Part shown: piece after piece, positions 45,001 to 45,701 of the stretch
Layout: each line of letters opens with the position of its first letter
How positions within the stretch are numbered: position 1 is the first letter of the stretch
Sequence record: MW349128.1
Direction: 5' to 3' (one strand)
DNA: 64,000 nt
Source: Staphylococcus phage Machias
Program-made: the position numbers and the translations under genes
The notes under the pieces: generated by a model
Database searches by the model: none
Told to the model about the DNA's origin: nothing
What the model saw: the letters and a program-made list of their open reading frames with translations, nothing else

Positions 45001-45600
45001 GAAAGCACTAGAGATGTTAAAATTGATTGGATTAAATTGAAAAAAGAATCTCATTCAACTAGATTATGGGAATCATTCTCTCAAGGTCCAGAATTCAAAA
45101 ATAAAGCACTTAACTTTGAGGTATTTGTCAATAACAAGAAAATTCCTAATAACTATGTAACTGTATTAAATTCTAAAGCTATTAAGATAAGTGAGATATC
45201 TGGATATGCATTAAATAATGTAATGATTAGATTTAACTTCTCTTATGACGAAGCATTACAGAGAATCATTGATAATTATAAATATAAAAATATTGATGTT
45301 AATGAAGATAGATATCATGATGATAGTATTGCTGATGTTAAATCACCGTTTGATGTTTTAACTAGTAATAAACAAGCTAAAACTTTAGGAAGTTTATTAG
45401 TTATTCAATTAGTTAATAGTGGTAAAAATATTCTTGATTGTAATGTAGATAATTTACCTATCGACATAAATCTAAATACAGATATAATTGAAAATAGTTA
45501 TATAAGAAAGAATATTAATTTAGATTGTTCAAAACAGTCTCCTCATAATGAAAGTTATGTTGAAAAAAATATTAATTGCTGGAAAGATTTATTAATCTAA
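42085..45600 (+). CDS. Large structural-like protein (1171 aa as called). Last ~24 codons overlap the 5' part of the IStron-like element, so the true C-terminus is probably supplied by splicing to 47182
   Basis: Long ORF. Sequence 45571-45600 (ATTAATTGCTGGAAAG...) is the P3/P4 strand of the ribozyme core rather than protein-coding signal. Same frame as ORF 47179. Confidence 0.5.
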   Translation: MSIKLNNELYYNLRDKTRLSKVENTQELVTGSFYTFYNDLLLEIRYDNKIYVYTGYSTQGEHVLELNFLKEELDNDTIEDVFMYDNILVIISEKGYYRCFMDQLTENINNSSAEVVYNYNFYRSSEELNYRPYSLLDDMICIKEANDTLVIRSIKTDAYTKTIVFNKNIEGFSFLYENGLAISFYGEPYHIHVYDFKEEKYTQNFTINENINQYEYDIQHQITRIFKFKNSLYYATRSGRIYRSDINDKLISSISYRFYQSGSSIDYIKSHGKYITFSNRSNNILIYNTEYDRKEILKNDYLVKSLAISNFIMVVSLYDSIDEDYKKRIIESGVIPEDISLNPVKKYVMYNPPNIDILSEKLEYRFDKVDNPLVYINLNVKLSENKLNNFDRSEYRVKFNISHSDDSNIVENSDVKIFKQQGTVKNMYIQLGRKSDFIDNNELLSLLENGNMLYKFTIDNLNNYVTFYNLEYPNIGSDLYRHLTGTEVFKDRQPEKSYFDAISEELNIKDIFNGAEDERVISRLSNLVNEKVIYPSSKLRINSEDMYLDYPDYDARRYIDLSNNYPDGQSENNVINSDVYFDGYKIFKNDILQKDNFDGSVNVYVNHLAMKKYMNDKNYEYTVHDKQLSKHDNFIILNKSRSLYQTEKLMIKHTVSNDYENQTSLLPTKGILLPNTRVNQFKIQNIRVYVKVYNTNENGNEYYHRLNPRNFNLWIDKEYNMLRVSVYGIQIPEGSTLMIMDNGLTNNVILYDKLNYIKRDIDSLPIVEVGPQGELLTELSRRTEDVEVIVDGLTLIPGRDFHVMNTPNDPDIPSLVAFRNVIPNTSKVEITLLNENSSDVYYFKRPAVDTTNVFVLPDDKRIFTNNIYQNDPYKDINLLKDSDEDVINKENVVKEYELLEPLEKNVDYTLTMRAQMPVDIDHLNITSNGTTKSIAEIQSSSYDEDTKTYQVKFKLEDLGDGYNTGLVIRKTQESTRDVKIDWIKLKKESHSTRLWESFSQGPEFKNKALNFEVFVNNKKIPNNYVTVLNSKAIKISEISGYALNNVMIRFNFSYDEALQRIIDNYKYKNIDVNEDRYHDDSIADVKSPFDVLTSNKQAKTLGSLLVIQLVNSGKNILDCNVDNLPIDINLNTDIIENSYIRKNINLDCSKQSPHNESYVEKNINCWKDLLI

Positions 45601-45701
45601 TCAGCATCAAGTCTATAAGACTTGTTCAACGACTAAATATATTTTACCTTTTTATTGTAAAGGTAATGATATAGTCTGTGCTTCAAATTAATAATTTGAA
45701 G
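45571..45701 (+). ncRNA. Group I ribozyme core copy C
   Basis: P4 GCUGG/UCAGC (G-U), P6 CAAGUCU/AGACUUG, R GUUCAACGACUAAAUAU, P8 UUACCUUU/AAAGGUAA, S GAUAUAGUCUG, P9 CUUCAAAUU/AAUUUGAAG. Confidence 0.55.

Follow-up and report, generated by a model that had tools for sequence, protein, structure and literature searches.

Complete group I introns of one compact family, one of them built like an IStron, in a 64-kb stretch of Staphylococcus phage Machias

What does a conserved RNA core of about 130 nucleotides (nt) represent when it is found three times inside the genes of a large phage? The question is raised by a stretch of 64,000 nt of Staphylococcus phage Machias (record MW349128.1; this whole stretch is the window in what follows), in which a sequence-only reading had described a family of minimal group I cores, with the segment at 45571-45701 as one of its three copies. 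The copies, named A, B and C, are best explained as members of one family of complete group I introns, of which A and B have no open reading frame (ORF) and C shows the build of an IStron, with a ribozyme followed by a tnpB gene. A rough probability of 0.85 is given to this reading as a whole, and the splicing of A, B and C is predicted from their sequence. The core of about 130 nt is not a free-standing unit: it corresponds to the P3-P9 portion of introns of 177, 150 and 1653 nt.

The R element GTTCAACGACTAAATAT, a 17-mer, shows exactly three occurrences in the window, at 4724, 4898 and 45624 of the + strand, and every one of them is flanked at the expected spacing by the elements P (TAATTGC), Q ((C/T)AGCAT) and S (GATATAGTC). 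A family covariance model (R1), built from a structure-anchored alignment of the family, shows exactly three matches in the window:

45567-45701 (+): copy C, 118.5 bits
4671-4795 (+): copy A, 92.3 bits
4846-4963 (+): copy B, 75.3 bits

A looser R/S motif scan of the window finds no copy beyond these three, so both searches agree with the family size first proposed. The near-invariance that had been reported for P, Q, R and S holds as to their presence in each copy, but their sequences are largely those of the general group I consensus, and a 15-mer of R alone matches at least 120 unrelated viral contigs. The R motif was rejected as a family marker because it is common to many group I introns in viral contigs. 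Along the segment 45571-45701, in agreement with the sequence-only reading, a short hairpin follows AUUAAUUGCUGG, then one of 7 bp follows AAUCAGCAUC, one of 8 bp GUUCAACGACUAAAUAU and one of 9 bp GAUAUAGUCU.

The window is 81-96% identical to the Staphylococcus jumbo phages PALS_2, S6, DC4, MarsHill, Madawaska, PB50, AH12, LY01 and SA1, and its phage is a member of the S6/MarsHill/LY01 group, whose phages have DNA of the uracil type. The boundaries of the introns were obtained by aligning the window to intron-less alleles, those of S6 for A and B and that of PALS_2 for C:

3834..4631 (+): exon 1 of the virion RNA polymerase beta-prime subunit gene, ending in GCTTTAGGT
4632..4808 (+): intron A, ORF-less group I intron of 177 nt, empty site in S6, terminal G at 4808
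4809..4824 (+): mini-exon ACTCAAGAAGGTGGGT of 16 nt, coding, once joined, for LG-TQEGG-YQ
4825..4974 (+): intron B, ORF-less group I intron of 150 nt, empty site in S6, terminal G at 4974
4975..5387 (+): exon 3 of the virion RNA polymerase beta-prime gene, starting with ATCAAGCTAAA and running to the stop codon
42085..45525 (+): upstream exon of the gene of a large virion-associated protein, ending in AATTTAGAT
45526..47178 (+): intron C, 1653 nt, empty site in PALS_2, terminal G at 47178
47179..48702 (+): downstream exon of the virion-associated protein gene, starting with ATGAATAGAACT

Each intron is preceded by T and ends in G, and joining of the exons restores the S6 or PALS_2 sequence in frame. 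The beta-prime gene of S6 is uninterrupted and encodes 408 amino acids (aa) (L004 2966-4192), exon 3 aligning from L004 3780 on, and its homologue in PB50 is annotated as viral RNA polymerase beta-prime subunit. The mini-exon shows the same position and coding as the uninterrupted S6 gene (GRALGTQEGGYQAKQL) and PB50, and the joined A/B exons read GRALG-TQEGG-YQAKK, as in S6; the predicted junctions are GCTTTAGGT^ACTCAAGAAGGTGGGT^ATCAAGCT (^ marks a splice or insertion site). In PALS_2 the virion-associated protein is encoded by a single coding sequence of 1651 aa (L001 295-5250), and the exons that flank intron C are contiguous at L001 3735/3736. The PALS_2-type empty site reads TTTAGAT^ATGAATAGAACTAATC and the junction predicted for C reads TTTAGAT^ATGAATAG (also given as TTTAGAT^ATGAATAGAAC). 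The segment 45571-45701 is only P3-P9 of copy C, whose intron, with a tnpB gene for 400 aa and a structured 3' region of 190 nt, is not minimal. At the beta-prime locus PB50 contains only intron B, after the mini-exon, and AH12 and LY01 contain both A and B. The A-site introns of the window and LY01 are 88% identical overall, with a P6 (4710-4724) that is wholly different yet paired and a P5 that also differs; the pattern suggests recombination that exchanged helices between family members, and not drift by point mutation.

These boundaries bear on whether the copies could be decaying relics that have lost splicing and are tolerated since the RNA polymerase genes of jumbo phages are naturally split. 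Jumbo-phage RNA polymerase subunits are indeed encoded by several genes, and PB50 and AH12 annotate the pieces as separate coding sequences, but the 16-nt mini-exon is in frame and encodes exactly the residues found in the uninterrupted homologue, and a 14-nt mini-exon in a different gene of LY01 shows the same. The ORF of exon 1 (3834-4637) meets a stop after just two codons of intron A, and exon 3 has no start codon of its own, its first ATG (4992) being downstream of the junction at 4975. Since, moreover, each guide matches its own exon and compensatory changes are found in every variable helix of 37 copies, which indicates continuing selection on RNA structure (both points below), decay is the least probable of the explanations considered. 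The ORF of the upstream exon at the other locus (42085-45600) reads into intron C. Splicing is argued for most strongly by the interruption of essential genes in phages that form plaques, with exons of 14-16 nt kept in frame.

The three introns show the helices expected of a group I ribozyme. In intron A these are:

4629-4633/4638-4642 (+): P1, GGU^AU with AUGCC, splice-site pair U4631·G4640
4645-4652/4657-4664 (+): P2, 8 bp with a GUAA loop
4671-4676/4739-4744 (+): P3
4681-4685/4704-4708 (+): P4
within 4686-4703 (+): P5, 3 bp
4710-4724 (+): P6
4731-4735/4768-4772 (+): P7
4745-4761 (+): P8
4774-4798 (+): P9, followed by the tail AACAUAAAUG and the terminal G at 4808

Intron B contains no P2 and shows:

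4819-4824/4834-4839 (+): P1, GUGGGU/GCUCAC, splice-site pair U4824·G4834
4846-4851/4913-4918 (+): P3
4856-4860/4877-4881 (+): P4, UGCUA/UAGCA, with a possible sixth pair G4861-C4876
P5, about 2 bp
4883-4898 (+): P6
4905-4909/4939-4943 (+): P7
within 4919-4932 (+): P8, 4 bp
4946-4952/4959-4965 (+): P9, with the terminal G at 4974

The 5' catalytic part of intron C (45526..45701, +) contains:

45522-45529/45533-45540 (+): P1, AGAU^UGUU with AACAGUCU, splice-site pair U45525·G45537
45544-45548/45555-45559 (+): P2, 5 bp
45567-45572/45639-45644 (+): P3
45577-45581/45602-45606 (+): P4
within 45582-45601 (+): P5, AGAUU/AAUCU
45608-45624 (+): P6
45631-45635/45672-45676 (+): P7
45645-45665 (+): P8
45681-45689/45693-45701 (+): P9

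All the P6 and P8 stems quoted in the sequence-only reading are found as written. Its three different P9 stems are reduced to two, since A and B both show AUCUAUA/UAUAGAU and only C differs. A P5 nearly absent applies to B (about 2 bp), and not to C (5 bp) or A (3 bp), and the lack of P2 is true of B only, A having 8 bp (4645-4664) and C 5 bp (45544-45559).

Unconstrained minimum-energy folds of A, B and C give P1, P2, P4/P5, P6, P7 with P8, and P9, with z from -3.6 to -5.0. On stretches of 300-400 nt the Rfam model Intron_gpI (RF00028) aligns end to end with all three at 24.5 (A), 27.2 (B) and 42.5 bits (C), each under the Rfam gathering score of 50 bits, with E-values from 3e-4 to 8e-10 (the latter for C). 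Every copy checked shows a U·G splice site and a terminal G. The guides fit their own exons (GCUCAC-GUGGGU in B, GUCU-AGAU in C, GUCC-GGAU in LY01), with a mean pairing of 4.5 bp to the own exon versus 2.9 bp to other exons. The group I assignment is thus carried by P3-P9 with the P3/P7 pseudoknot, the P/Q/R/S elements, the U·G 5' site, and a terminal G at which the gene is exactly restored. The R and S sequences are of the IA/phage type; the gap between P7 (GACUA) and P3' is 3 nt (AAU) in all 37 copies, with no P7.1/P7.2, and because of these only 3 nt the family is not assigned to subgroup IA2 (the type of T4 td and Twort). A GIR1/lariat-capping ribozyme, which branches, lies within a larger twin-ribozyme intron and has no exon-joining splice sites of its own, was ruled out, each copy having its own U·G P1, a terminal G and exons that rejoin in frame.

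Selection on the RNA pairing is seen in a structure-anchored alignment of 37 family copies, three from the window and 34 from LY01, where an anchored motif scan found 35 copies, one of them a different larger intron that was left out. A plain MAFFT alignment of the three window copies was discarded, since it mis-registered the variable helices; the structure-anchored one, padded with N, was used instead, and a pass through MAFFT left it unchanged except for one row that shifted. The registers of P3, P6 and P8 were set by the flanking invariant elements and not fitted. Paired cells amount to 92.3% versus 71.2% in shuffles (none of 500 reaches the observed value), figures in which the hand-fitted registers of P5 and P9 bias the pairing percentages upward and the close relationship of many copies makes the shuffle statistics overstate independence. 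When the partners are slid by 1-3 columns, a control free of this weakness of relatedness, pairing falls to 30-47%. The covariation score is 0.521 versus 0.136 in shuffles, and 309 cells are changed on both sides versus 105; a second, separate count of the pairs agrees. The long-range P3 is paired in 98.2% of cells, and five of its six pairs co-vary, with variants such as AAUUAU/AUAAUU, UUCUAU/AUAGAA and UCUUUU/AAAAGA. P6 and P8 show covariation at nearly every pair, and P4 and P7 are invariant except for one G-C to A-U switch, so that covariation supports P3, P4 (one pair), P5, P6, P8 and P9. The high frequency of G·U and U·G pairs is in line with an RNA of the + strand and speaks against hairpins in DNA. 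Without any structure as input, RNAalifold finds P4, P5, P6, P7, P8 and P9. That the copies are cores of group I introns, with selection acting on their RNA structure, is borne out by this covariation and by the Rfam matches; the covariation that had been proposed from three copies remains strong in the larger alignment, and the covariance-model search finds three copies in the window and no match in S6.

Intron C is built like an IStron because an intact tnpB gene and a structured 3' region follow the ribozyme:

45785..46987 (+): tnpB gene within intron C, 400 aa, with the strong ribosome-binding site AGGAGGTG upstream
46988..47178 (+): structured, G+C-richer 3' region of 190 nt, ending in UUAACAAGACAG and containing the 3' splice site

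The protein shows the Pfam domains HTH_OrfB_IS605, OrfB_IS605 and Cas12f1-like TNB, and it aligns over its full length with ISDra2 TnpB (8EXA/8H1J; E-value 9e-21). The GxDxG motif, a glutamate, the DRDxNAAxNI motif and the CxxC...CxxC zinc finger are conserved between both, and we take the first three to hold the three RuvC acidic residues that are catalytic in ISDra2 TnpB. It is 87% identical to an intron-borne copy of LY01, and the other hits in the phage collection are at most 30% identical. The 3' region shows a fold z of -4.5 and is nearly invariant in three elements (that of the window and two of LY01), with one hairpin that contains compensatory changes (GUGAGAAGG.CCUUCUCAC, GUACAGAGG.CCUCUAUAC and GUGAGAGAG.CUCUCUUAC). 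TnpB-bearing elements 86-89% identical to C are located at two other LY01 genes, with unrelated downstream exons. The 5' flanks of the three are TTAGAT in the window and CCGGAT and GCGGAT in LY01, their guides match the respective sites (GUCU versus GUCC), and the target-adjacent motif of ISDra2 is presumably TTGAT. The element therefore joins a 5' group I core to a 3' tnpB, its ends are its splice sites, and its copies lie at non-homologous sites. In a separate place LY01 contains a second, unrelated and G+C-richer group I core (L128 ~34871-35066, - strand; 196 nt from P to S), located in an insertion of about 1.9 kb with a different TnpB of 382 aa (L128 33610-34758, - strand), which means that two ribozyme types are tied to TnpB in one phage; five tnpB genes are found in LY01 in total.

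In addition to the two limits on the pairing statistics given above, several points weigh against the reading of A, B and C as splicing introns and of C as an IStron-like element. The splicing is a prediction only. Rfam scans of the whole window at gathering thresholds, and of 4 kb at E ≤ 10, report no intron; this and the sub-threshold scores are a sensitivity limit of the general model on very short, A+T-rich members, and not counter-evidence. The introns are 21-25% G+C with very short helices (in B, a P8 of 4 bp and a P5 of about 2 bp), and this makes unaided folding doubtful. The 3' region is a candidate omega (guide) RNA scaffold judged from three close copies only. Intron C contains no tnpA, tnpB being the only ORF of at least 40 aa on the strand of the intron; in LY01 the one tnpB-neighbouring ORF that was tested shows no Pfam match, no systematic tnpA search having been made there. 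Without tnpA, an insertion sequence-type transposition route has no enzyme in view. IStrons with ORF B only, such as CsISt1, are catalogued (PMC4227781), so that C without tnpA is a non-autonomous element and is not excluded from the IStrons.

The tie to a TnpB-bearing element also gives some ground to another explanation, in which the hairpins are DNA signals of a non-autonomous IS200/IS605-type transposon, a palindrome-associated class, and the group I likeness is secondary. Hairpins are located just inside both ends (P2 at the 5' end, P9 at the 3' end), the terminal tails are conserved, and copies are found at many sites, also in tandem clusters. A DNA hairpin, however, would not need the long-range P3 and the P3/P7 pseudoknot that co-vary here, nor would it explain common G·U pairs; the P/Q/R/S consensus and the Rfam matches point to group I, each checked copy shows the U·G splice site and the terminal G, and no tnpA was found in intron C or in the one LY01 ORF looked at. 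As an alternative to introns this is very unlikely. In IStrons the same ends serve DNA and RNA roles (PMC10690162), so the DNA and RNA readings are compatible.

The intron family extends to sister phages. BLAST shows about 32 family places in LY01, about 29 in AH12, about 20 in PB50, 12 in Madawaska and 10 in MarsHill, and none in S6, PALS_2 and DC4; in the whole S6 genome the anchored motif scan finds 0 copies and R1 gives 0 matches. Spliced alignment of LY01 to S6 gives ORF-less introns of 142, 153, 153, 154, 156, 156, 157, 177, 180, 181, 184 and 184 nt, one further intron of 296 nt and two TnpB-bearing introns of 1644 and 1650 nt. Only gaps that contain the core and obey the T^...G^ rule, or that are verified at the protein level, were kept; the other candidates were rejected as spurious gaps in diverged regions under free gap extension, and one of 188 nt was set aside, its 3' end being probably wrong. 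The 142-nt intron, which has no P8, is verified against the S6 nucleotide sequence. An intron of 127 nt (L129, - strand, LY-233606) shows P1 and P3-P8, with no P2 and no P9; it is separated by the 14-nt exon CGTGGTTCTACTGT from an intron of 156 nt, and removal of both restores SANKAG-RGSTV-PMVWLDEW of S6_0140 exactly at the protein level. P8 is normally counted in the universal group I core, and about eight LY01 copies lack it, P3' being followed by CUAAGAA and then by the S element. Examples are:

L126 15200-15285 (-): P8-less copy of LY01
L128 15645-15732 (-): P8-less copy of LY01
L128 26819-26907 (-): P8-less copy of LY01

The 296-nt ORF-less intron of LY01 (L126, - strand, LY-60139) has kept the TnpB-type P9, the end TTTAACAAGACAG and a distal portion of the 3' region, and this retention marks it as an internal-deletion derivative of a TnpB-bearing element. 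The ORF-less miniatures, A and B among them, have the same core as C and differ from it in P9 (TCTATATT..AATATAGA) and in the tail (TAACATAAATG).

Beyond this phage group, R1 shows clusters of 3-10 matches within a few kb (40-86 bits) in IMG/VR contigs of 58-384 kb, most of them of 230-384 kb. The loci with such clusters are L015, L037, L038, L045, L048, L067, L079, L085, L101 and L109. Some of these compact cores have P-to-S spans of about 94 nt and some have no P8. The contigs are possibly the published gut 'Jug' phages, and the clusters indicate that compact cores are not new as a general phenomenon.

The unusually small size first proposed is thus confirmed for A and B. That these introns, with 177 and 150 nt here and 142 and 127 nt in LY01, some without P2, P8 or P9, are the smallest group I introns so far seen in nature that can splice is a tentative claim, to which we give somewhat less than even odds. 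Almost as much weight goes to a different possibility, still a doubtful one, in which the introns are genuine and not autonomous, needing a protein of the phage or the host, or special conditions, to fold and splice, in the manner of mitochondrial group I introns that depend on maturases. Their very low G+C content and short helices are in line with such a dependence, as are the absence of peripheral tetraloop-receptor candidates in B and the lack of P8 or P9, normally core elements, in LY01 relatives; in the ORF-less copies, moreover, the sequences of P9 and the tail are conserved and those of P3, P6 and P8 vary, which fits recognition by a protein. On the other hand, no candidate cofactor was identified, shuffled sequences fold clearly less stably, sunY derivatives engineered to a length of about 180 nt keep their activity, and the conservation of P9 could reflect recent common descent.

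Under the preferred reading, that of complete introns, the transcript would fold into a group I core with a P4-P6 stack and a P3-P7-P8 domain joined by the P3/P7 pseudoknot. The internal guide would pair with the last bases of the upstream exon, the splice site being marked by U·G; cutting after this U by an external guanosine would be followed by attack of the freed exon after the terminal G. Excision of A (177 nt) and B (150 nt) would join three exons, one of 16 nt, into the beta-prime mRNA, and excision of C (1653 nt) would restore the gene of the 1651-aa-class virion protein. TnpB, guided by the 3' RNA read through into the downstream exon, would probably cut intron-less alleles beside a ...GAT motif, and repair during co-infection would then copy element C into the cut allele. 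A and B would be non-autonomous ORF-less relatives, perhaps reduced derivatives of TnpB-bearing elements, that spread or persist passively or with help in trans.

Among the known systems closest to the family are the compact ORF-less group I introns of bacteria and phages, such as those of Azoarcus and phage Twort. The Azoarcus tRNA-Ile intron, of 205 nt, counts as the smallest characterised, and the three introns of the single Twort gene orf142 have about 250 nt each. The family shares with them the catalytic core with P/Q/R/S, the U·G 5' site and the terminal G, as well as the location in conserved parts of essential phage genes, several per gene with short exons between. It differs in that A and B (177 and 150 nt) and their LY01 relatives (142 and 127 nt) are shorter, in the lack of P7.1/P7.2 and, for B, in having no P2 and almost no P5. 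Copy C resembles the IStrons (CdISt1 of Clostridioides difficile, and those of Clostridium botulinum and phage c-st) in its 5' ribozyme, its IS605-family tnpB and its structured 3' RNA, in ends that are splice sites, in the presence at several genomic sites, and in the target ...GAT and the element end ...CAG. IStrons are known, also in Clostridium phages, and those of group A insert after TTGAT/ATTAT/TTTAT and end in TCAG (PMC4227781); their anatomy is a 5' ribozyme, a 3' tnpB with guide RNA, and splice sites at the ends (PMC4227781, PMC10690162). Unlike these, C has no tnpA, is hosted by a virulent Staphylococcus jumbo phage, shows a ribozyme without the Twort-like IA2 extras, encodes a TnpB whose identity to those of other phages, phage c-st among them, is about 30% or less (LY01 aside), and has many ORF-less miniature relatives at its side.

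Small group I introns are abundant in 'Jug' jumbo phages of the gut and in crAss-like phages; for the gut jumbo phages 2513 are counted, with a mean of about 206 nt and a mean of 18.5 per genome, and metatranscriptomes show splicing for 37 of 76 introns of gut jumbo phages (PMC12880540). The Staphylococcus phages are like the 'Jug' phages in the many small group I introns that fragment essential genes, and unlike them in lineage and host and in copies that are smaller still. Passages of Korn et al. list genes that introns break up in the phages MarsHill, Madawaska and Machias, namely those of RNA polymerase subunits, gyrase B, DNA polymerase, terminase and prohead protease, with introns inferred from protein alignments, and these passages contain no RNA structures, sizes, family analysis or link to TnpB (10.1101/2020.12.14.422802). 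Publications thus already cover IStrons, sister-phage genes that introns split, and the abundance of small group I introns in jumbo phages. A feature that looks new is the extreme size, with 150 nt in the window and 127 nt in LY01 versus 205 nt for Azoarcus, a literature search for a stated smallest group I intron having returned nothing usable. The natural loss of P2, P8 or P9 and the link between TnpB-bearing and miniature members of one family in a virulent Staphylococcus jumbo phage also look new, no description of either being found in the literature.

If competent in splicing, these introns would set a new lower bound for group I catalytic architecture, and if they splice unaided they would show, in dozens of natural variants of which the shortest have 127-150 nt, the minimal RNA for a group I ribozyme, well below the benchmark of about 205 nt and below engineered mini-ribozymes. 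This bears on ribozyme folding and engineering, for instance of compact self-splicing or circularising cassettes. If the proposed descent is right, a burst of miniatures has arisen from TnpB-carrying IStrons, analogous to MITEs (the miniature transposable elements with inverted repeats) arising from transposons, and has colonised the essential genes of a virulent jumbo phage at as many as about 35 sites. One phage lineage would thereby link homing-type introns, RNA-guided TnpB nucleases and MITE-like miniaturisation, for which the intron-free sisters S6 and PALS_2 are natural recipients in studies of mobility. Since standard Rfam scans miss these introns, essential genes are annotated as fragments, and published claims of no Rfam introns in related phages are to be read with care. 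The split coding sequences of PB50, AH12 and LY01 are annotation artefacts of unrecognised introns.

Two unusual tRNA features are found in the window. BLAST of the tRNA region of the window against S6 and LY01 returned nothing. The first feature (5434-5505, + strand) scores 45.8 bits with the Rfam tRNA model, is called by ARAGORN as 'tRNA-???' with a two-base anticodon 'tt' and an abnormal anticodon loop, and adjoins a normal tRNA-Asn (5858-5929). The second (5937-6039, + strand) scores 54.7 bits with the same model and receives no call from ARAGORN; its fold is a cloverleaf in which the anticodon arm, with about 34 extra nt inside it, forms a long hairpin, and it may be either a tRNA interrupted by a short intervening sequence or an element that resembles a tRNA.

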